Shown here one piece after another: positions 3,711 to 23,600 of a stretch of 64,000 nt of DNA. The DNA lies in the NCBI GenBank assembly GCA_963924565.1, contig OZ004609.1, positions 16,182,001 through 16,246,000 on the forward strand, read 5' to 3'. A program made the translations under genes and the position numbers. The stretch is from Ascidiella aspersa. Lineage: Eukaryota. The notes under the pieces are model-generated. The model ran no database searches. It saw only the letters and a program-made list of their open reading frames with translations, and had not been told where the DNA came from. Every line of letters starts with the position of its first letter. Position 1 is the stretch's first letter.

Positions 3711-5772
3711 GACTTTTTTGGAAGACTCATAAAAGTATTTTAATATGCTATAGATATGAGGCTAAGTTACATAAATACACTACCAAACAAACGTTTACTG
3801 AAAGAACCCCACATATATCAAACAGCATTTTACATATTTTTCAAGTTTTTATTTTAGCGTTCCTTTGCACTGTTTGTGTGATGTTTGTATATTAGTCAAA
3901 AAACACGGCCTGTACTATAAATGATTCTACAACAAAATTAACAGCAAACGTACACCGTCATGAAAGGTTAAGAACCGCTAGTATAACGTTCCTTTTTGGA
4001 CAACAACATTGTAATAATGCCTATTAAATTATGTGTACATTTTACAGTTTTGTACGTCGTTGTGCATTTACATATTATATGTGTAAAGAGGTTTATTGGA
4101 AATGCTTAAGTCTGTCCCAAAAAAATCTTTATTTTTTTAATTTTTTTTATAGATCTGATGCATTGTGTCTACAATGTCAACAAATGTTTTACGTATTTTA
4201 TATTAATCATCCCGATCGTACTAGCATCGACCAATTAAAGAATCGATTATTACCGCTGAAAGATTAGCTGTTGTAGTAGGAAATTTCAATCCACCTTCGG
4301 CTTTTGACCAATTTGCATTCTTGCCAAATTTGGAAAAAAATAAAAAAAGGGTTTTCTCCACCTGGTTATACTTTCTGAATTTATCTGCCTAACGTTCGTG
4401 GTAGAAAATGCAATGGTCGCTCTTTCCGCCAGGGAAATAACTAAACCATTTGAAGCAGTATAACACTTATTCGAAAGTCAGAAAATAATCGACTAATCAC
4501 AAGTTTGTTGATTTATGAAGTTATACTTGTAAAACATAATATGGCAACCATGGCCGCTGCCCCTCTCCCGGAACCAACCCTTACGTTACAGCATATTACT
4601 TCACAATTTAAATTCATTTAAGAAAAAAGCAGTTAGGGTATTGATTCGGCAACAGTCTGTTCGGGCCCATTTTGTTTCAGCAATCTAAAGCTTTTGTACT
4701 CTATTACAAAATAGTAGTGGATATCAACAATATAAATAAACTCACCACAACCATTCAAGTAACCCAATAAAGACATTAGGTCAAGCAAAATCAATTAAGG
4801 TAATTCACCATTTAACGAAATAAAATTCATCTGAAGAAAAACAAATCAAAACAAATACACCTTGACTGTATAAACAATTTAAATGTATATACAACCAACA
4901 AAATAATACCAATATTTTCAATTGAATTATTTTTTTTTGGCAATATAGCTTAATAATTAAGCTAACGGTCTTTTACAACCGCATTCATATTACCTTCACG
5001 ACAGCAGCGCTCTTTCTTAGACCACCCAGGCTTAAGCGTTAGTTTACCGTACACTTCTGCCACTTGTAGGCCTGTAGGCTATATGCCAGGAAATTATTTA
5101 ACTAAGATCACATATTAGTTACTAAACAGCAATCGTTACAATATTATAAATACATTACAATTTAAAAAAAACTTCTCTAGCTTTTCTAATTTGCCCGAAA
5201 AGTAAAACAATAAGTTGCTACCATGACTTGCAATTACTGTCCAATTAATTTGGGTAATGCATTTTTTCGCATTTTGCATTAGTTTATCGTCTTCAACTTT
5301 AACAAGAAACGAACTATATGTTTTTGCTCTTCGCGTGGTCATACTTGACCCTATAGGTTCATCTTGATAAATGCCATTTCATCATAAAAATGCCATTTTG
5401 AGAAAGGCGAATGAATCATTTTTGAGAAAGGCGAATCATCAAAGTTTATTAAGATAAACGAAATTTTTTTCGAAAGCTTCGCTGCAATCTCCTTAAATAT
5501 GTTTAGGCTTTAGTTTTTAAGGGTAACTTGGCACACTAGAACAGCAGGTTTCTTAAGTTAAATTGTATGTCACGTTTCAGGTAACCTTGTGAGGTAATCT
5601 CTGCAAACGTTCATACCCATTCCCCGCAAAGAAAAAAGGGATAGATTTGCCCCTAGTGTCTCCTAAGTTTTACAACCGGTATACCCTTTCGCATTCAACT
5701 AAAACTTTACGCTAGGAAAGCGATAATAAAACTTAATCCAGAGGAATCTTGATGTGATCCAGTTTGTTCTTA

Positions 5773-6352
5773 TTAAGTTGATAAATTTGTCGACAGCTTC
5801 GGGATTTCGTAACCGAAAAGGTCGTAGTCGGGCTTGTATAGTTGTATCAGCTGATTGGTTTTAGCAATCGAAATGTTTGAAAAGAGTTTCACCACAGTTG
5901 AGTGCTTTGTTGAACTGGCCCCTGACTTTTCATATCCGACAGGATATTTAACGTTGCTCGGAGCGTTGATCCTTTTAAGAATATACCTAAAACATTGGTA
6001 TGATAAAAAAGCATATTAAATTATAGCTTCCTTCACTCTCAAAAGTATGAATCTATGAACATGTGTGTGTTGGGTATAAAATAAATGTATGCAAGTATAC
6101 GCGCAAACGCTGGTGTTTTTATTTTTAAAATAGCTTTACCTTGCGTCCTCTTCAATTGTTTCCATATGAGCGATAACGTCATACTTGACATGACACGGGT
6201 AACAGAGAGTGGTAAAATTTTGCCAGTGTCGAACCTCCACCGACTGCGCGTTTTTTGATCCGTGATTAATGATGTCCTTCGTGACGTCAGAATTGGCGGG
6301 ATCCACAATGTAGGAAATATACTCGTCGAATGTGGCGTAGAGTTTGTAATTT
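5773..6352 (-). CDS. Sulfotransferase C-terminal exons 9-10 (6352-6140, 5986-5773)
   Basis: ATFDEYISYIV...HWQNFTTLCYPCHVKYDVIAHMETIEEDAR|YILKRINAP...LYKPDYDLFGYEIP; TAA at 5775-5773. Confidence 0.92.
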
Positions 6353-9300
6353 CTGTAAAAGGTTTTGTATATATTCGACAAACATTGACTGTTAATATTT
6401 AGAGCGATTGTACACACTAATACATTTCCTAATTTGTTTATATGTGTGACCAGTTTTTTTTTTACAGTTTGGTTTTGGTGACCGCTAAGTAGTTTTAAGA
6501 AACCGCAAGTGTTTCCTTTAAATACCAAAAGTTGCAAGTCCAAAATTTGGGAAACCGCTGGAGAAATTTAGGGGACCGTTTCGGTCCCCCAAAACACCTT
6601 AAAAAAACACTGTGTGTGACTAACAGTTTTTATCTTGGTTCATTGTTGCATCACAGGGCCACCAGGCTATACCGCCCCCCCCCCCCCCTAAACCATACTT
6701 TTAGAAAATAAAATTTGCAAACTTTTTCCGTTTCACTTAAATCTGTTTAGCCCAAATGCGATATGCATTCTATAGCATCTAGAGCTGTGTGACTCATAGG
6801 CTAATCTCTAGTGCAAAGTGAAAAAGTTTGCATTTATGTAGTTAAAATGAGAAAAAGTTTCTCGGTACCAAAGCAAATTGATACCGTGCGTGCTATGTGT
6901 ATAACGTCTTTGCAATATTGCTGTAGTATCAGTAACACCTCAGATGGTTTATTATGGCTATTTTTTATAACATTAATTGTGACGTCATCTATTAAAATTT
7001 CAATGTCCCCCCTGACATAAAAACGACATTTTCAAAAAAACATAAAACATAACATTTGCGGGCAGTTGTGTGTTCTATATGTCTTAGTTGTAAAGTAATC
7101 AACTATAGTTTACCGATAATATATTTAGATTAGGGCCTAACCTTTAGGCCAATGTTTTACACGTTTTTGTAAAACATTGTTTATTTCTTCAAACCCTTCA
7201 ACGACACGTTTAACGTATCCTCTGATTTTTTTCATTTCTAATAACCTCAGAATAAGCCAAATGGCACTGTAATTTGTGCAGCTCTATAATTGAAATGAGG
7301 GTGGGGATTTAAAAATCAGTTTAATTGAGTAGGTATTCCATTCTAAAAAGCTGCTGAAAAAACCAAGGACTCCTTTGTCAGTCTGAACTCCTCTTTAAAT
7401 AACATTTTGTTAACGTAAAACTACGATAAATTATATGCGTCAATTTAGCTGTCAACTCAGGCAGGATAGCACCCGACGTTTGACAAAGCAAACAATTATG
7501 TTAACACCGTTAACCTACCTGTAATGGTAGGCTGGTGCTGTGTATATTTCTGGTGGATCCGGCCGTTTTAGGATTGTGGATTCAGGTTCGATAGAGGTAT
7601 TTGCATTTTTCCCTGTACGTTTTGAAGACAAAAACAGAATAAACGTTTTGCCAGTTTGGACAAAAAAGTTTTTGTAATCAGCAATTTGCTGTAAAACGTC
7701 TCTTCACATGATCGAAGATAAAGAAATCCTAAACTTAACCTTTAGCAATTACACCTACCGCTGCAATAGTACCATATTTTAAGATATTTTGTCGTAGATG
7801 GACAAGGGTCGCTTTGAATCCATTTAGATGTAGCTTCGACAACGCACGATGTTTTCATATTGCACGCGACCAACACAGCCGATGATGCAGTTTCTGCACT
7901 GCATTGCAAATTGTAGATAGAACCGTTTTTTGAACATCTGCAGACACAAAATAGCTCCTAAAACATAAGATAAAGGGTTGTATTTATTTTTTTTTGATCT
8001 TCACCACGAGTATCTTTTTTAATTTGTAAAGAGGATTGAAACCATTTCAAGGTCATTACATTTTTTATATTGAAAATGGAAATATAGGACCTCGTCTGTC
8101 CACGAAACAAAGAATAAAGTTGTTTTCAGCACCTAGGGGACTGTTACTAAGAAGTTTATAGGTTAAAATAAAGTTAAAATTTACATTAAAGTTAAAATTT
8201 GTTAATAAAGTCAAAATTTGTCAAATTATGACTTTTGACAAAGTTTTTGTGTTTCTTGAGAGTAGTTTATATAAATATTGTCGTGGAAGCATTGTAAATC
8301 AGGAACTGCGACACAATTAAACCATATTAACCCGTAAAAGCAGGCAAAATGTCAAAATGCCCACTTGGATCTGCAGTAACTTTTATCGCAAATTATCCAT
8401 TTTTTTTATTGGTTGTTACAAAACGCTTCCTCTTCATAAAGATCAACAGTTTGAATTTTAGGAATAGCCTACTGACATTCTGTAATACAAAAATGCCTAA
8501 GCAAGCTTAATCTATCGCCAAAAAAAACGATGCACTTTTTAAAATCCATAATACACCTTGACTTTGCAACAAAATATCACGTTTGGGTCTGAAATCGACA
8601 AAATATTATGTTTGGGTAACTGGCATCAATTCAAGGAAGAACTGTGGCCTCTACAAACAAGCAATTTAGTTAGGTTAAAATAAAGTTAAAATTTGATAAA
8701 AATAAAGTTAAATTTTTTTTTTAGGTTAAAATAAAAATGGCCCTAGTTATTACCATTTCAGTCACGGTAAAAGAGTAGTTGGGAAGCAAACTGTTCAAAG
8801 ACCATTTAGTATTCCAATCTTAAAGTGTTTTCAATTGATATGTGTTATATGGGTTCTGTACATAAATTAAAAAGTCTCCAACTCATCTGGCCTGTAAATC
8901 ATTTGTTCTGGAATTTCACAACGGCCGCTAGGTTCATTTTAAGTTAATTCACCAGGACATGTAGCCATGGTTTCAGATTCTGGAAATTGTTATTAAAATG
9001 CGTAGAACAAGTCTTTCTATAAGAAGAAGCCGAGATTATGTTACTAAAATACTTAATATATCTCAGCATTTATGAGCCGTGGCCATCGCCCCCTGGTGGG
9101 ACATGGATCAGTATTCAGGTGGCCACCATCTTTTTTATTATAATATTTTTAAACATTTTAACACAAATTTGTCGTTTGCATTATGAGTTTACAGATCTTC
9201 TCTGTGATTTTATGTGAATTATTTTTCCAATTCGTGAGCAAGGGGGTAACATGGTGTTGCGAACACCAAAACAAAGTTTTACTTTTAACTTGTCGTGATA

Positions 9301-12300
9301 AGGGGCGCACTCTTTGTCACTTATTCCCTGAACAAAACAGAGATCAGATTATATCTTAAGCTGGGTGTGATTTTCTGACCGTATTGCGCAGCCACGCCAG
9401 ACTTAAGAAATCTCAGCTAATTAATCAACCTTCAGACCTCGACCCCGGAAGCCTAACTTTCAATTTTGTTGCAAATTTCCTTTTTGAAAACATGTACATT
9501 TACACTCAGTCTGTAGGTCTAATAATTGTAATGTTGGCTTTTGATTAAGCGTTTTTATGAATATTTCAGTTCGGAACTCACTCTAACTATACGAAGTATA
9601 CAAAAATATTGTTGGTGACTTAATTCAGTCTTTATTCCCATCAAAACTTATTTGGTGTCCCAGATGGTTATGGTGCTAAATTGTTTAGAAGTTTGTTAAA
9701 TTTGTTGCTTTTTAATCTTTGTATGACAATTATCGCAATTATGTTCATACTTAGTTTGAAAGTATTGATTTGAATTGAGCAAAATGAGTATAGTTATTAA
9801 TAATACCGGATTAATACTTTACAAACTCTATAAAAATAAATAACAAGACTAATAGAGGAGCTTTTATATTTCGACCTACTTTTTTAGGGTATATAATACT
9901 TACATTTGCCTGTTTGTTCTTCCATAAAAGCTAGATCCGATGTGAATCAATTCACCAGCAGGACAACGTAATTGCCGAATGGAGCGATCACAAATCGTTA
10001 CTTCCGTCATTTTTGATATATCTAAATTTATCGGTTTTATTAAAACGTCACTGGCTCATTGTAACATATGTACATCTGGGAAGAAGGTTTGGATTCACTA
10101 TTCACTTGTCCATTTATATATTTCAAAAACATATGTCAGTGGAAAATAGCCCTTTTAAAGTTAAACATATGCCTATCTAGATAAAACATATTGTGCGGTA
10201 AGTGCGAAACTTTTATTTCTTTGAAATATTCAAGGTCAACAGTATTACTGCAACATTTAAATTTAAATTAAACTTAATAAAAGTTGTGCTTGCTGCACAA
10301 AAAACACCAAAAAAAGAATATAATTAGACGCTATTTTACCTATAATAGTCGTTATTTCAGGGGTGGACAAACTTTCAGCTCGCGAGCCGGATTTCAAACT
10401 TAGTATAGTTTAATAAAGAGCAGCATAGAGTGCATTAACATGTGGCTTATTTTCCACGATAAAGTATGGTCTGTTACGAGGGATACAACACAGATAGCTT
10501 TTATAACAGGGTCACAAATGATGACGGGTATAAGGGGTTTTTAACTAACGAAGTCATCTGAAACCACTTTAACAACCAAACATTCTTCCGGTGTGTATAT
10601 TTAAAGCAGTCGCATTGTAAAAATACGGATGAAAAACAATCCTGTACTAGAAATATGGATAATATTTTTTACCTAAATGAGGCACAGACAATATGTCGGA
10701 GAGCGACTGTTAGATTATTTAGTACCGGCTTAGTGCACGAGTAAAATATACACATGTGGCTGCTTCAAAGCTTGTTTACAGTAAATATAGTCTATATGCG
10801 TACTTTTTCCAATGTTAGATTGATTTATAATAACGTGAATCGTATTTCATTTATTTTATTTTTGTTTTAAAGTTGTCTGATTCGTCACTTACTTTAACAC
10901 TTATAGGTGGTACAGGGTAAACTGAACTAAACAGACCTTTACACTCGTAGATAATCTGTAGGTAGTTGGGAGCAGTCCCGCAGCCTTTTAGTGGAAAGAG
11001 TGCAGGCGATGACACAACTTCACAATTCGTCTTTCCGTCGCACAACTGTGAGACGACAAACCACGACCGCGGAGATGAACATTTGCGAACCTTCATATCT
11101 GATGTTGCGTCGTCCATACAGCTTAAAAGTATTAAAATAAATTACTTTAACAAGGCGATTCAACGCACTATGTGTTCCTCGCCTACCTCAGGGTCAGGTT
11201 GCGAACGATTGTTGAACAAATTCGTAAAATGTTTATTTACTAACAAGGTAATGATTTGATTACTGATAAAAATTGGCTTTGGATTCCTAAAACACAAATT
11301 TTATGTACAATATTAGTCTCGTAGGCATAGCATTAGGAGTACATTGGAAGCACGATGCCCCTAAAGTCTTCCTGGCGCATATTGCAACACTTTGGCGTGG
11401 GGTTTCGTAAACAAACTCGTTTATCTATGGGAGGCCACAAATCAAAGAACACATCGGTCGGGTTGAAACGTAATCGCAGATACAAATAAAAAAGTAGCCA
11501 ATGTGCAACTGAATACGAGTCTAATTACAGTTTAGGAAAGGACCTTAAAACGTTGAAGCGAATTACAATAAAACGTTTATTGAGTTTAAGTTGGCAATTT
11601 TTTTTATTTTACAAGGGACGTGACGCAATGCACAACCCAAAAAATGCACATTTATCGATTGGAAAAAATATAGTTAGATTGACCCATCAGCAGTGAGACT
11701 ATACAGGAACCTATACGGAAAATAAAAAGTTATTTTTTTATCTTGTTATAGGTTTAAGTTTCGCCTAACGCGGCATTACCAAGGTGATAAATTAGCATGT
11801 GCCTAACCAGACTACCAGTGATACCTGGGTAATGAATGGGTGACATTTTTGCTTTGTATTTTTAATGTGTAATTAAATAAGTCCCTTAAAATTAAATAAA
11901 TACTTATACTTATATCCACTTACGTTAAGCCGTCCTGTCTTCCGAAAATCGCGCTGTGAATCTTTATTACGTGTTTTTCCTGTTGGCACTCAAGCATAGC
12001 AACTTCGTGATGACACGTCACTATTTCTCGCCACCCCCTTCCCAAATCTATGGGTAGAGTGCATAACAAGTCGTTTACATGATTCAAAATAATGTTAAAG
12101 CCCATACAGAAGTAGGTATCATTTTGAAAGTTTCGAATAACTCTTTATTCATATTCAACATCTAAATGAATAAAGAGTTGTTCGAAACGTTCAAAATGAT
12201 ACCTATACTTCTGTATGGGCTTTGATATTCTTATTACGTCTTACTACAACCTCCAACCATTATGCTCCAAAATAATGTTGTATTTAGCACTTCCGTTTAG

Positions 12301-14714
12301 ATTACAGGCAGTCTTTTATAATCAATGTGTAATTGTTATGTGCCCAATGTGTGTCCTAAATTAAATTTTACTTAATCCAAATAAAACGCAAAACGCGCAT
12401 TGCTGGACAAGGACTCAACATGTATTTTCATGTTGCCTTACTATTATATAATCGACAAATACCATTTGGCTTTTGTCAATATTCAAAGGGGGACGAAAGG
12501 CACAGAACATTTCCAAAAGGGGAGCACGCTAGAAAAAACGATTAGAACCACTGGTCTATATCTATAAGGTCTCGTTCGTGACCAACTCAATAAAAACACG
12601 TCATCGCTGGCAAAGTACTACCGAATAATAGCCAATTTATCTAGGCAAATGAGAAGTAACATAACGAAGTTAAACTGGTCCAGAAAACGATTTATTACGC
12701 ACCTATATCGTTGTAAACAACCCGGATACATTTAATGCTATGGTAATTGCACATTGGCGTGGTAATTCGACTGGCAAAAAATAGCCTCTATAAGTGACTT
12801 GCTTTGTGACGTCACGCTATGGCGAAATTTTGTAACGTCATATTTAAATGACCACAAAAAATGCCGGTGACTGCTCGGAAGCATCATGATTTTTAGCCTA
12901 AAACATGTTTAGCTTGTTGAAAAACCCCAGCGGTAGCTTAATTAGTTGCGTCGTGTTTTAACGGTAATTGCATCACACTTTTAACAAATATACAAATTCA
13001 ATCACGTTGAATCAGTATAATAAAACCATATAGGTTCAAACCTATACTACCTTGTGCTGGATTTTTCCATCGATTTCCATATTTACGAGCAACTTCATAA
13101 GAAAATTGTGAAAATACGGAAGTCCTTTTGTCCGGAGGTTTATAAACCTTGTCCAAATAGGCAGACGTCAATCTCTCAATTGGCTCACGAACAACCATCA
13201 TTTTCAAGGAGTCATTGTACGCTTGAAAAAGTGTCTTGTTCGGTGCAAACTGAATAAATTCTAACTTTGCGCCATGAGATTGGCCCTGTGTTTTAACATA
13301 GGTTTTTCAGTTATATAAAAATGAAAAAAAATGTAAAAAAAATTACGACTATAATTGTGTTCACACATTGGTTTGATAAAGAATTACAGTTTTAAAAAAC
13401 GTAATATTAGCGCCATTGTATATTTGTTTAACGAGGATCTATGAAATCTTTCTATAGTGTACTGGCACATTTACCTACTTTACGTGTCCTAACTTCGATA
13501 TCTCGGTCATTTGCAAATCAAAGTCCCGTTTTAGCTGGCCTAGTTCACATTTAATACAGTAAAACGTTATTGTTTGTTGTGCAAACAATACAACGCCTTT
13601 AGAATCCGAATATTGCCGGGTCAGTTCTCGAATTGTATACTGAGCGTCCATAGTTCACGCAAGTACTTGAATAATTTAAAAACAATATAAATATAAACAG
13701 TTGCTTGTGTATAGGCCTTTAAACACTTTAGCCTTTAACGTTATATGTTTTACCTGCTTAATGTGTTCAGTAGAGTTCGCCATTCCACCAAGAACCATTA
13801 AAACCTTTTTCCAATTACTACAACCAGACTTCGGTACTTCGCAGTAAATTAACTTGTGTTTTACCGAAGTAAAGTACCAAGGTGTGGGTTTGGGCAGGGT
13901 GTTAACCCAAGGTACGTAGGTAAGGTTTTTAAAATTGATTCCTGTAAGGTTCGAAAAATGTTTTAAAAAATTACTCATACCAACATATTTGCTAAAGCAC
14001 AATCACCCACATGTTTTGTAATGTAATTTACATCATATTTCTCGAATATTTCTAACTTCTTCAAAACATACGTTAAGTATACACGTCGATACATATATAC
14101 ATAATTTTATTACCCATTTTCCTGCACGTCTTTTCCAGATGCATTCTCCGTTGTCGCATTCTTTCGTCTATCCTTGCCATAAACTGATCGTCTGTCTCTT
14201 TGACAGTTAAATTGGTCGCCGCGCCAACAGACTTACTCTGACTTGTCATCCTTTGAGAACTAGCATCTAACGAAATGTTGCCATCATTCGTTTCACGGTT
14301 CGCTTGCACATATGCTGTGTTTATCCTGCTTGATTCACTGCCATCCGTCGGTTTATCTTTAGTTAACATGCGCAAGCTTTGTGTCGCAGTGTCAGTAAAA
14401 CTTTGCTGATCAGGTGTAGTTGCGGTAGGATTTCGGCGTGGTATTTGAGGTGAGGTGGCTGGTTGTGTATCCTTAATCAGTTGCCTTGCGGTTGAAGTTT
14501 CATTTAGATCACTTGCTTGAAAAAAACGAGTCCGTTCGGCTGTCGACTGTATCGTCCAAATCGTTTGTTGGTTATTAATCTTTATTCCAATTTGAATTAA
14601 GACTTTGGAAACGGTGGCATCAATAACAAATCGCACACAAACCGAAATTAACAGGCAAGCAACCAGTAACCAACCGATCCTTTTTCGAAAGTGTCTTTGA
14701 ATTTTTCGGGGCAT
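5773..14714 (-). CDS. Carbohydrate sulfotransferase (Sulfotransfer_2, CHST8-14/HNK-1ST family) with two internal SUEL lectin domains; 10 exons: 14714-14114, 13941-13754, 13285-13051, 12047-11924, 11121-10937, 10021-9904, 7937-7759, 7612-7519, 6352-6140, 5986-5773 (2151 nt, 716 aa)
   Basis: Basic N-tail + TM (RKRIGWLLVACLLISVCV), S/T-rich stem, 5'-PSB motif YCEVPKSGCSNWKK, 3'-PB motif VREPIERLTSAY, C-terminal HWQNFTTLCYPCHVKYDVIAHMETIEEDA and LYKPDYDLFGY. All nine introns GT-AG with compatible phases (1,0,1,2,1,2,1,2,2) and no internal stop. Confidence 0.9.
7519..7612 (-). CDS. Pro-rich linker exon joining lectin cassette back to sulfotransferase C-half
   Basis: cag|GKNANTSIEPESTILKRPDPPEIYTAPAYHYR|gtaggt; phase 1 in, phase 2 out, exactly what exon 6352 requires. 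Confidence 0.8.
7759..10021 (-). CDS. SUEL/Gal_lectin domain 2 (exons 10021-9904 and 7937-7759; both absent from the ORF track)
   Basis: TICDRSIRQLRCPAGELIHIGSSFYGRTNRQI|CSKNGSIYNLQCSAETASSAVLVACNMKTSCVVEATSKWIQSDPCPSTTKYLKIWYYCS; YGR and DPCxxTxKYL hallmark motifs, 8 Cys. Confidence 0.9.
10937..12047 (-). CDS. SUEL/Gal_lectin domain 1 (exons 12047-11924 and 11121-10937) inside the sulfotransferase
   Basis: VTCHHEVAMLECQQEKHVIKIHSAIFGRQDGLT|CMDD...KCSSPRSWFVVSQLCDGKTNCEVVSSPALFPLKGCGTAPNYLQIIYECK; 8 Cys in SUEL spacing. Confidence 0.88.
12091..12229. repeat. Near-perfect hairpin/palindrome (~60-bp arms, 13-nt loop), probable MITE
   Basis: aaagcccatacagaagtaggtatcattttgaa...ctctttattcat / atgaataaagagttg...ttcaaaatgatacctatacttctgtatgggcttt. 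Confidence 0.85.
13051..13941 (-). CDS. Sulfotransferase exons 2-3 (13941-13754, 13285-13051): PAPS-binding 5'-PSB and 3'-PB motifs
   Basis: KHKLIYCEVPKSGCSNWKKVL and MMVVREPIERLTSAYLDK; canonical splice sites. Confidence 0.93.
14114..14714 (-). CDS. Sulfotransferase exon 1: cytoplasmic tail, signal-anchor TM, Ser/Thr-rich stem
   Basis: ORF 14073..14714; ends ...LEKTCRKMG|gtaata (phase 1). Confidence 0.88.
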
Positions 14715-15609
14715 TACTCCTCGATATTTTTTTATACATTAACCATTATGTTCAGATATTTTTGTAATTAACTATATTGCCTACAGTTTTCGACTAGTCG
14801 TAACGTCTTACTCTGTTGCAACCGCTTTACTGTCTGCTCATGAGAAAAAAAAAGTTTTACCAGAAGGATAGTTAATCTTTAACAGCGCATAATACGCTCA
14901 ACAACTAGCCTATTCTTGATTATGCTTAAATGACTCAACATTATAATTAACCAAAGCCTTTGAACAGGTGACCTAAACCTTTGCCTGACACAGTGAATTT
15001 GTAATAGGTGACTACCACACAGCATGTATTTCATTAGGTTACCCGCTTTCAGTAAATTGGTTAGGCTTTAGGTACGAGCTATAAACACCATGACGCAATA
15101 CTGTTTGTTAATCGTTAAAGTGCGGTTAAGCCCATCCTTAAGATTTAGTAACGTTAAGTGTAAGCTGTTTGAAATTGAATCGTGAAAACGATAGAGAGGG
15201 GCTGTTTAATACCAATGTACGAATTTTATTAAATCGTTGTAGCCTTACAATAAAAGCATAATAAACTAAAGGCCATGAAGTTTATAAAAGTGGCCTTACG
15301 GCTGCACTCCACTATATAGTGATACGAATATTTCAGAAAAGGAAATTGACATTAATGATATAAATAACAATACACCACAATGCGAGAAACTAGTTTATAA
15401 TTGTGAATACGTCATTATATTACGGCCATGCATTAAATTTTAACGAAAAATAGATGCGAAACGCTTCAGAGCTTCGTAGGCTACCAATCGTATGTGGTTT
15501 CATCTATGTTTTTTCAGGGCATCCTTTTTTTATTGTCGGTCCTGTTCGTCAGACGCCAGATATTTGGAGAAATAACTTTGTCTTATTTTGCTTTGTTTAA
15601 GAAATGCAA

Positions 15610-20600: not shown

Positions 20601-23600
20601 CGTTGAACATACGGCACCTCTTTTAAATAATAACTTAATCCTAGTGTCTGGCCTTTTGTTTCAACAAACAGATAGAGATTCAGAGGCGTAGAAATACAAA
20701 TAAAATACCACACATATATTATAGATAAACAATAAGATTAAAATTCGTAGCTACCTTTTTGAGTTCCGCAACCGATGGTTGAGTTTCGACCAATTTCGGT
20801 TCTTCTTCTATACTGCTACTGCTGCTATTTCTGCTGTTGTTGTCATTACTGTGCTTCGTCATATCAGAGCGGCTTAAACTAGATGGATTTGATTGCTTGA
20901 AGGTGGGTCTGCTTGAAGTAAGTTAGCACAATCGTAAGGTTCAAAGTTTAAAGAAAATAACAGCACAATAAATCGTAGGTTTTAAAGTTTAAAATTTTGT
21001 ACAAAGCTCGTTGCGTAATCGTTAGATCTGCTTTATGATTAGAAAAGCGTCTGTGTGAATACAATTTATCGTAAAGCTCAGGAGAATTGCGTCATCAACC
21101 AAATACATGGCATTTTAATATATGCCTATTATAATATATCATTGACCAAATACGGAATTTTCCTGGTTTACCATCAATTATGATTTATCTCGGTTGGAAA
21201 GCGACGCAAAAATGATTTTTTGATAGAAACATAAAAAAATTGAGTCAAGCAACTCGTTGATAAACAACTACGAAAATAAAATTATTGTTTTAAATATTTT
21301 GAATATTGTTTATGTTGCGTGGCAGTGGTGATAAATTATTTAAAAGATCTGTAATCTAACCGTTTAAACTTTAGTTTGCCGCTTTTTGCTTGTTGTTCTT
21401 TATCAATCAATACAGATACGTGGCCTGTAGCTTGCTGGTAGCTAAGTCGCATCCCGGATTGTGGTTTTGAAGGCAACAATTCTATTTTTTTCTCTTTAAC
21501 TTCGCTGTTTTGACAGCTGCAGTCGATCGTAACCTCCCGTGGAGCGGCCCCAGGGGAGTCATTTGGGTTGTTGCAGTTGTTATTGTTGTTGGGGTGATTA
21601 TTGTTCGTCGAAAGGCTGGATTGCATAGTCAGCATTTTGGATTTTTCCCTGAGGTAAAAATAACAACGTCAGGAGTTTCAGTAAAATGAAACAAAAAAAT
21701 CAGACTGGAAAAACTTAAATGCCTTTTTTGTGTATTTTACATATTAACACACTTTTTTTCTAAAATATAAAAATATTTAGATGGACCACTCGACCTTGTT
21801 TAAAATATTTTACCCAACTTTTAAACTGCCATTCTTTACAGAGCTTCTATTTACCATCGGTAAAGATCAAGCGATTTAAAAACGTATTCACCTCATGTAA
21901 TTCGCCGCCTTTCTTCGCAACAGGAAATCCACTGCTTCGGGGTCATTTTCGTTTAACGTCCGGAGCATTTGGTCGTGATCATATTTGACGATCTGACAAC
22001 AATAGCCTATATAAAACACTTCCGGGAAAACAATTGCGAAATATTTCTAGGCGCCTAATTAGAGATGTGTGTGTAAGAGGTGGATTCGATCATAATATAA
22101 ATGCGATCTTGGGCAGTATTGTGTGACTTATAGCGACTTCATAAGATCATTCCTTTTTAAAATGTTGTCACCTATCACGATACGTTACAGCTCTTAACTA
22201 AAAATAACGAAAAAGACATGTAATAATGAATAACCAACAATATTATCCAAACGCAACTGTACTATATGATCAATAAAACGTTATGTGAAGTCACTTTACA
22301 ATTACCAATATGTAATTATAAATCAGGCTCCTATGTGTACACGGAAGTTTGTTCATTATAAATTAGCATTTTCGTATCTAATTGACTTACCTGAAACAGT
22401 TGTGTATAGTTTGTGATGATTTCTTCCACAACTGTTATAACGGCGCCACTGTCTTCTGCTTTCTCCATGCTTTGTATCTGATGAAATAACGATGTGCATA
22501 AATTAAAGGGTTTTTTATTGTGCGCCGTAATTTGCTAAACGAGCTTCCGATGAAATACAATTGCTAAAATTTGAATGTTTGAGAAACGGTTCTAACAATG
22601 CAAAACCGCAAAAAAACATTAGATTTGTTTGCATGATCACTACAATGAATATCTCTTCTACCAACAACGTTATGATAAAAACTTTTTGTAGGATGAATAT
22701 GTACGAACCTGATATGGATTATCGTTGCTAGTCTGAGTTTTCTTGTAACGATGCAATATGTTGGGGCCGAAAATAGTTGCCAGATTTGAAGCTCCCATCT
22801 TATTTCCGGTAACCTGAAAACATTCATGTAAGTAGTTTTTATACACGTTTGTAAAAAAGTGCTCCATATACACAAACAACATTGTTTTAAGAAAATGATG
22901 ACGCATAGCAATAGTTGACGCAAAAAAATTAAAAACTAAAACTAAAGGTCGAAGGTATTTTGAGTATTGTGAACGAGCCATTTTGAAATACCCCAAGTCC
23001 CTGTCACGGCATTTGTAAAATAAAAATCCGAATAAAGTAATTTGCGAAATTGGCAAGTGGAGTCACAGTCAAAGTCATTTTTATTACAAGTCAACCTTGT
23101 GCGCTATTTTGATAGCAACCAACAAAAATAACTTAATGCTTTTACTAGAAGAAATTGAAATACAAAAATAACCAAGTTTTATTGTTTATTATTTTAAGAC
23201 ATTCTGTCTGTTAATTGGTTTGCCTAAATCCAAGTAGAGTAATTCTTACAAAAAGAATGTAGTAAAGTCACGTCAGTTTCAAGAGATTTAAAAAGAGTGA
23301 CTTCAGCACACTTGTTTAGGTAATCAGAATGCTTTGATTTAAATTCAAGTAGGCCAATAATGATAGAGATGTCAGCCATTAAATACCAGGATTGAAATTA
23401 CTGCTGTAGGAAATCTTCAAATTGCATGCATTCATGTGGTTCATATAGACGTATGTAATTTCATAATACCGTTACTTGTAAATCAAAGTTTAGTCATATG
23501 TCATAAACCTTAATATATTTTTTTAATACATTTTTTAATATTACCTTGTTTCTAAAAGTGTCAATACTATCCTCTGAATGAGCGGCAACAACAGAAAGAA

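Follow-up and report, generated by a model that had tools for sequence, protein, structure and literature searches.

Two SUEL domains inside the catalytic domain of a predicted Golgi sulfotransferase conserved among ascidians

Lectin-type additions to Golgi enzymes are already known, among them those of the GALNTs, MGAT4, POMGNT1, B4GALNT3 and WSCD1/2. Here we describe a gene in a 64,000-nucleotide stretch of the genome of the ascidian Ascidiella aspersa (assembly GCA_963924565.1, contig OZ004609.1, positions 16,182,001 to 16,246,000; hereafter the window, from whose first nucleotide all positions are counted). The gene is predicted to encode a membrane anchor, a stem, the first half of a Sulfotransfer_2 domain (PF03567), two SUEL domains (PF02140), a linker and the second half of the Sulfotransfer_2 domain. 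To our knowledge, the Golgi sulfotransferases behind the unusual sulfated polysaccharides of ascidians are largely unassigned, and their choice of acceptor is poorly understood.

The principle that we consider for this protein is the one seen in GALNTs, MGAT4A/B, POMGNT1 and B4GALNT3/4 (the latter with a PA14 domain), in which a non-catalytic glycan reader selects the acceptor or senses the product (PMC13018970). GALNTs, POMGNT1 and MGAT4 have lectin domains that bind the product of their own enzyme, the PA14 domain of B4GALNT3 binds sulfated glycans, and Golgi lectin additions favour glycoprotein acceptors (PMC13018970). These enzymes, however, are glycosyltransferases of other folds, and no use of a SUEL domain is described in the accessible part of that paper (PMC13018970). 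The sialate O-sulfotransferases WSCD1 and WSCD2 are likewise Golgi type II proteins with an additional module, and thus provide a precedent for a Golgi sulfotransferase so equipped, but they form a separate sulfotransferase clade and their module is WSC, not SUEL (PMC9304399).

A split Sulfotransfer_2 domain and two SUEL domains in one frame

Positions 5500-15500 were read and the gene model was built by script, yielding ten minus-strand exons that assemble into a single 716-aa frame. All nine introns are GT..AG, with phases 1, 0, 1, 2, 1, 2, 1, 2 and 2. An original prediction, made from the window's sequence, had placed five inner exons between the catalytic halves; these were recovered at the same coordinates and, with the five outer exons, give the one frame that it had claimed.

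Exon 1 (14114..14714, minus strand, as are all the following) encodes residues 1-200, comprising a basic N-terminal tail, a transmembrane segment, the stem and the first helix of the catalytic region, and ends in phase 1. The transmembrane segment (about residues 12-31) is the single hydrophobic stretch, directly follows the basic tail and reaches a hydropathy of 2.55, which qualifies it as a type II anchor. Exon 2 (13754..13941, residues 201-263, ending in phase 0) contains PKSGC at residue 237, and exon 3 (13051..13285, residues 264-341) contains REPIERLTSAY at residue 296 together with the next helix; we take these to be the motifs named 5'-PSB and 3'-PB. Both exons matched PF03567, with expectation values (E) of 2e-9 and 1.2e-7. 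The phase-1 end of exon 3 is the point at which the SUEL cassette is inserted. SUEL1 is encoded by exon 4 (11924..12047, residues 342-382, phase 1 to 2; a weak Pfam domain start, E 0.03) and exon 5 (10937..11121, residues 383-444, phase 2 to 1; PF02140, E 6.5e-9), and SUEL2 by exon 6 (9904..10021, residues 445-483, phase 1 to 2; a weak domain start, E 0.016) and exon 7 (7759..7937, residues 484-543, phase 2 to 1; PF02140, E 1.6e-11). Exon 8 (7519..7612, residues 544-574, phase 1 to 2) supplies a proline-rich linker that leads back into the catalytic domain and differs in length among species. The second catalytic half begins in exon 9 (6140..6352, residues 575-645, ending in phase 2; PF03567, E 5.4e-8), with HWQ at residue 617 and CYPC at residue 625, and exon 10 (5773..5986, residues 646-716 plus the stop codon; PF03567, E 3.2e-5) encodes its C-terminal part. 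An AATAAA lies beyond exon 10, at 5450.

In this exon-by-exon search PF03567 exceeded its 22-bit curated cut-off in four of the ten exons (2, 3, 9 and 10) and SUEL_Lectin exceeded its own in exons 5 and 7; exons 1 and 8 had no relevant Pfam match. The Sulfotransfer_2 profile is divided, with profile positions 3-42 and 74-117 in exons 2-3 and positions 143-186 and 188-252 in exons 9-10, and each SUEL domain occupies one exon pair (4+5 and 6+7). Both the divided match and the two lectin matches had been anticipated by the original prediction. It had further held the linker exon to be obligatory, as exon 3 would not join exon 9 in frame. The direct join is indeed out of frame; of the 31 conceivable skips within exons 4-8, however, seven preserve the frame, including loss of the whole SUEL cassette (exons 4-7, leaving 514 aa) and three skips that drop exon 8. 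Therefore, neither the cassette nor the linker exon is obligatory by frame.

The 5'-PSB (PK..C.NWK) and 3'-PB (R.P.ERL.SAY) motifs align with those of fish CHST8 and CHST11-like proteins and of three ascidian paralogues. Motifs, Pfam matches and anchor agree with the proposed type II sulfotransferase of the CHST8-14/HNK-1ST kind, whose loop behind the 3'-PB helix carries the two SUEL domains. On these sequence features the product is likely a membrane-anchored carbohydrate sulfotransferase of the Golgi, dependent on 3'-phosphoadenosine 5'-phosphosulfate. It shares with the CHST8-14/HNK-1ST (CHST10) family (PF03567), to which the expanded ascidian C4ST-like set also belongs, the type II topology and the 5'-PSB, 3'-PB, HW..CxPC and C-terminal motifs, but has about 230 additional residues (two SUEL domains and the linker) after the 3'-PB helix. 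None of the 97 sulfotransferase-only proteins that we collected has a comparable insert. In WSCD1 and WSCD2 the WSC domains precede the catalytic domain and do not lie within it.

Trees of the catalytic domain placed the four SUEL-bearing proteins together and apart from fish CHST8 and CHST11-like proteins, with a Shimodaira-Hasegawa-like approximate likelihood ratio of 99 in a quick tree of 101 rows and support of 92/89, just below the tool's bar, in a more careful tree of a 26-row subset. In the latter the fish proteins formed a separate group (100/99), which speaks against orthology to CHST8 or CHST11 among rows that included no named vertebrate CHST9, 10, 12, 13 or 14. Since the SUEL-bearing proteins form a four-protein group of their own, the acceptor specificity of CHST8 or CHST11-like enzymes should not be transferred to them.

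AlphaFold2 was applied to the Ciona intestinalis orthologue with a 103-row alignment (mean predicted local distance difference test score 78.8; predicted template-modelling (TM) score 0.63). Both catalytic halves and both SUEL domains were modelled with confidence, and the stem and the linker (which corresponds to exon 8 of the window gene) were disordered. VIA-align matched ranges of this model that span both halves (e.g., 141-648) to many sulfotransferases, with Z 5.5-7.7 and a root-mean-square deviation of about 4-5.7, and residues 87-653 of the Atlas's own model of this orthologue aligned to a carbohydrate sulfotransferase with a TM score of 0.62 by target. The two catalytic halves are predicted to fold as one sulfotransferase domain with the cassette looped out, and the fold signal from structure alignment is moderate but consistent. 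Foldseek gave no sulfotransferase among the matches listed, and an Atlas feature search with residues 86-661 gave no usable match.

The sugar site of the SUEL domains

All six SUEL domains in the alignment have eight cysteines, and PF02140 matches and structure alignments place the domains in the rhamnose-binding lectin (RBL) fold. In VIA-align the cassette aligned with domains of CSL3, SUL-I and latrophilin at Z 13.6-14.9. The protein structurally closest to the SUEL1-SUEL2 tandem was human EVA1C (TM 0.66), which likewise has SUEL domains in tandem and is reported to bind heparin (PMC3269628). An Atlas feature search with the cassette gave only leads under 0.9. The rhamnose-binding lectins CSL3 and SUL-I have the fold, the eight cysteines, the tandem pair and the two-exon design in common with the cassette; unlike them, the domains here are embedded in an enzyme, have no signal peptide of their own and have a key Glu and Asn replaced, and SUEL1 lacks the DPC-K motif. 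SUEL domains attached to a receptor, often without the Glu, are found in EVA-1/EVA1C and latrophilin (PMC2430599). Those are cell-surface receptors, whereas the domains described here would face the Golgi lumen from inside a catalytic domain.

In CSL3 the sugar site consists of Glu7, Tyr27, Asn74, Asp79, Gly83 and Lys86 (PMC3269628). Replacement of the Glu in the latrophilin-1 RBL raised the dissociation constant for rhamnose from 1.78 mM to 144 mM (E42D) or 141 mM (E42Q), i.e., binding was about 80-fold weaker (PMC2430599, Table 1). This Glu, which follows the first Cys, is present in only one of seven orthologous domains, compared with 168 of 210 other domains (77-81% after deduplication) and all seven SUEL first exons elsewhere in this genome. 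The residues at its position in SUEL1/SUEL2 are His354/Asp456 in the window, Glu/Gln in Clavelina lepadiformis and Ser/Gln in C. intestinalis, with Pro in Ciona savignyi. None of the six complete orthologous domains retains the site Asn. SUEL1 has FGR for YGR, a degenerate DPC-KYL motif in which Asp, Pro and Lys are replaced, and a scrambled loop 2, while the Clavelina SUEL1 retains Glu and Lys. SUEL2 keeps YGR, DPC and KYL, with Ser in place of Gly, and has both Tyr477 and Lys534; YGR together with DPC..KYL is therefore found in SUEL2 and not in SUEL1.

The presence of the Glu in just one of seven orthologous domains, against about 80% elsewhere, makes canonical rhamnose or galactose binding unlikely. 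The original prediction had supposed that the domains bind these sugars in the usual manner, a supposition that the residues seen in the window do not support, where SUEL1 also lacks the site Tyr, Asp-Pro and Lys. Canonical rhamnose binding was rejected on the weak binding of the Glu mutants, the near-absence of Glu among the orthologous domains and the loss of Asn.

SUEL2 is nevertheless well conserved, with 49% and 48% identity to its orthologues, compared with 44% and 50% for the first catalytic half, 44-57% for the catalytic halves together and 19% and 9% for the transmembrane segment plus stem. Four of its residues, Trp523, Gln525, Ser526 and Trp539, are invariant in three species and occur in 2, 2, 11 and 0% of 230 other domains, respectively. 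This conservation and these invariant residues imply that the module is under constraint for something, which the sequence comparison suggests is probably other than classical rhamnose or D-galactose binding.

Occurrence in ascidians and origin of the cassette

A search with exon 9 recovered, as one match among 12 candidates, a 728-aa C. lepadiformis protein with both domains (XP_076824633.1, CAK8686212.1), which aligns collinearly with the window model throughout and matches PF03567 at 153 bits in two stretches. The Clavelina protein in turn recovered C. intestinalis XP_002125445.1 (LOC100186940), of the same architecture. Also in the cluster of this Ciona protein are a second RefSeq entry and a fragment that extends from SUEL1, by way of SUEL2, into the second half of the catalytic domain. 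The architecture was seen in part in a C. savignyi fragment, which extends from the first half of the catalytic domain into the beginning of SUEL1, and the UniRef fragments H2Z449 and F7AFN1 span both cassette borders. Both domains were present in 5 of 156 collected proteins, all of them in the two orthologue clusters; 97 had the sulfotransferase only and 54 SUEL only. The A. aspersa genome has at least 30 SUEL and at least 63 sulfotransferase matches, and they are interleaved only at this locus. As judged from these sequences, the architecture is real and conserved in ascidians.

Word-seeded searches gave orthologues only from C. lepadiformis, C. intestinalis and C. savignyi. A 50%-cluster library listed none of the full-length orthologues; absence from stolidobranchs, thaliaceans, larvaceans and non-tunicates is therefore weak evidence. 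Sixteen metagenome loci and four paralogue loci from the A. aspersa genome gave no convincing SUEL match (one at E 0.0097). A full-text literature search, with most subscription papers and supplements outside its scope, found no description of the architecture. The claim that it was new thus holds for the searchable literature, but public databases already contain it as uncharacterised models. Three features appear to be undescribed: an insert placed within the catalytic domain, a Golgi enzyme carrying the SUEL fold, and the remodelled pocket; both parts of the protein and its working principle are already known.

Two further observations came from the collected proteins. The linker of the C. 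intestinalis orthologue (P0003) contains, at about residues 465-470, a run of four Arg that could be a proprotein-convertase site and that is not kept in the window or Clavelina proteins. Two unnamed proteins, P0030 (675 aa) and P0106 (653 aa), have two tandem Sulfotransfer_2 domains and may be fused gene models.

The position of the cassette was compared with the intron structure of plain sulfotransferase paralogues and of other SUEL loci, whose splice sites are predicted. Among four paralogue loci of the A. aspersa genome, L002 and L004 share a phase-1 donor placed six codons beyond the YG at the end of the post-3'-PB helix, and a phase-1 acceptor ahead of the TFEEF helix; in the window gene the exon 3 donor lies eight codons after its YG. 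The phase-1 donor of L001 comes earlier, and L003 lacks an intron in this loop. All seven first exons found in four other SUEL loci end, like exons 4 and 6, at a phase-2 donor 14 nt downstream of the YGR Arg, and phase-1 acceptors were found in six of seven first exons and phase-1 donors in three of four second exons. Each SUEL domain of the window gene is a phase 1-2-1 exon pair at a phase-1 intron position common to L002 and L004, which argues for exon shuffling. Entry of a phase 1-1 module into a pre-existing phase-1 intron is likely the simplest account of these predicted structures, and would make the gene a clear case of exon shuffling into the catalytic domain of an enzyme.

The Sulfotransfer_2 family is much expanded in this genome (at least 63 exon-level matches), with tandem clusters at C6:8.79-8.82 Mb, C6:14.41-14.43 Mb, C3:28.73-28.79 Mb, C9:15.82-15.87 Mb and C1:11.62-11.63 Mb. 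Two SUEL loci (L021, C7:27.44-27.54 Mb; L022, C5:19.15-19.18 Mb) are arrays of near-identical SUEL exon pairs with the canonical Glu and are likely multi-domain rhamnose-binding lectin genes.

Proposed role, competing readings and transcription

Our preferred reading, which we hold tentatively, is that the gene encodes a Golgi sulfotransferase with an acceptor-selecting cassette, in which SUEL2 binds a non-canonical glycan. The cassette would act as a tether, its remodelled SUEL2 pocket holding a glycan that is neither free rhamnose nor free galactose; the acceptor-selecting role is proposed by analogy with the lectin domains of GALNTs, MGAT4 and B4GALNT3. The enzyme would sulfate a glycan of the ascidian extracellular matrix, be it a polysaccharide of the tunic, a glycosaminoglycan or a glycan carried by a glycoprotein, and SUEL2 would hold that glycan or its sulfated product, allowing selective or repeated sulfation of a polymer or glycoprotein. 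SUEL1, the more degenerate domain, may serve mainly as a spacer, and a plain isoform lacking the cassette may also be produced. Candidate acceptors include sulfated tunic L-galactans (PMC10609765, PMC8747265, PMC3366676) and the dermatan or chondroitin sulfates of ascidians, for which seven or eight C4ST-like genes are present in Ciona (PMC3127831, PMC13731937); the evidence does not pick among them. Since the tunic galactans are built of L-galactose and the canonical site, as represented by the latrophilin-1 RBL, does not bind L-fucose (6-deoxy-L-galactose; PMC2430599), the enzyme could be tethered to them only through a remodelled pocket, and the usual-site tether to a polymer rich in galactose or rhamnose that the original prediction envisaged is not supported. 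A more specific version, in which two SUEL domains were shuffled in, the Trp-x-Gln-Ser pocket of SUEL2 was retooled for L-galactose or a sulfated glycan, the gene became a candidate tunic L-galactan enzyme and splicing toggles the reader, seems unlikely as a whole. If SUEL2 does bind a new glycan, the protein would be a sulfotransferase with a reader inside its catalytic domain, with a new SUEL specificity and possible use as a probe for marine sulfated glycans. C. intestinalis LOC100186940 offers a handle in a model organism, with a clean in-frame module and a few lineage-specific invariant SUEL2 residues.

Several points weigh against an acceptor-selecting cassette. The best single-domain match in Foldseek was the LAT-1 lectin domain, which binds protein (TM 0.90 by target). 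The latrophilin-1 RBL does not bind heparin, and for RBL domains without the Glu the authors of that study favour non-carbohydrate ligands (PMC2430599). Net positive charge is modest and, in SUEL1, not conserved. The sulfotransferase Z-scores are below 8, and the search for solved structures found none of this sulfotransferase subfamily, its 12 sequence matches all being SUEL. The orthologues are uncharacterised, automated gene models. Transcript evidence came from one raw RNA run of the same species, of which about 6% of the reads were covered, and contained no junction read at any exon border and none into the cassette; the joints listed all lay in intronic repeats. Likelihoods favoured skipping of the cassette over inclusion by a factor of 1.8 with a mean insert of 220 nt, 19.6 with 280 nt and 122.7 with 350 nt; these ratios derive from two fragments and binned depths only, with a 20-nt placement limit, and depend on the insert size. 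With a 12-nt limit neither isoform fitted. The underlying depth amounts to about four reads on exons 3, 8 and 9 (about two each on exons 3 and 8), with zero depth on exons 1, 2, 5, 6, 7 and 10 and exon 4 masked by an adjoining repeat; the first mates map to the plus strand, the orientation that most stranded libraries give for a transcript from the minus strand. Read depth thus leans weakly towards skipping, a hint and not a result, and is the main evidence against constitutive inclusion.

The same lectin evidence can be read as protein binding, with the SUEL domains docking the enzyme to a particular acceptor protein, to another Golgi enzyme acting as its partner or to another molecule of the same enzyme. 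Such docking, which we think somewhat unlikely, would account for the missing Glu in six of seven orthologous domains, agrees with the ligands favoured for Glu-less RBL domains, and fits top structural matches that include latrophilin lectin domains solved with TOL-1 and teneurins. The invariant Trp523, Gln525 and Ser526, however, lie in the sugar-pocket loop of a domain that keeps the Tyr and Lys, which fits a retooled pocket, although the pocket Lys is also structural (PMC2430599) and tempers that argument. Ordinary lectin domains that tether the enzyme through rhamnose or D-galactose are improbable. The fold and the eight cysteines per domain would suit them, as would the motif residues that SUEL2 of the window gene retains (YGR, the Asp-Pro of DPC, and Lys) and the Clavelina SUEL1 with its Glu and Lys, and two weak sites beside an active site could add up; the rhamnose affinities of the Glu mutants and the nearly uniform loss of Glu and Asn described above speak against them.

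Whether the cassette is always present is a separate matter, compatible with either kind of ligand. The usual transcript might skip exons 4-7 and encode the plain 514-aa enzyme, with the lectin form minor or tissue-restricted, as the in-frame skip, the distribution of depth and the skip/inclusion ratios would suggest. That depth, however, is some four reads with no joint, and the clusters of the orthologues, with two and three members, contain no skipped form. SUEL2 is moreover conserved as much as the catalytic domain, and we consider a mainly skipped cassette distinctly unlikely. Least probable of all is a lectin gene of its own, made up of exons 4-7 and lying within an intron, or an assembly join, with the fusion in either case created by gene prediction. 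An in-frame ATG at 12105 and a stop within a few codons of read-through at the exon 7 donor would be in keeping with a nested gene, as would the absence of junction reads and DNA contigs that break, in two samples, between exons 3 and 4, 6 and 7, and 8 and 9. The original prediction had seen no separate start for a lectin gene; the ATG does exist, but it lies inside a high-copy hairpin repeat and begins no signal peptide, and intron 3 has no signal-peptide exon, none of its 13 ATG frames combining a hydrophobic core with a phase-1 donor. Intron 7 is without a poly(A) signal, and the same order and border sequences recur in three other species, which argues against nested gene and assembly join alike. 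A stand-alone nested gene was rejected on the position of its sole in-frame ATG and the lack of a signal-peptide exon.

The DNA contigs, from two samples of one study (one of which may be the assembly's own source), match exons 1-3, 4-6, 7-8 and 9-10 and break at the intervening repeats. The repeat that holds the ATG is a fold-back element at 12088-12232 (extending to about 12273), with nested inverted arms of 40 nt at 95% and 27 nt at 89%. It lies about 40 nt from the exon 4 acceptor and has a summed contig depth of hundreds of thousands, compared with about 50-100 for unique DNA. The element looks like a miniature inverted-repeat transposable element and could affect inclusion of exon 4. Further high-copy repeats lie at about 6470-6660 and 8100-9000. 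Upstream of the gene, at about 17600-59600, long minus-strand frames resemble exons of a large RhoGAP gene, with a weak PF00620 match at 22673-23062 (E 6e-4); ten other long frames had no Pfam match.

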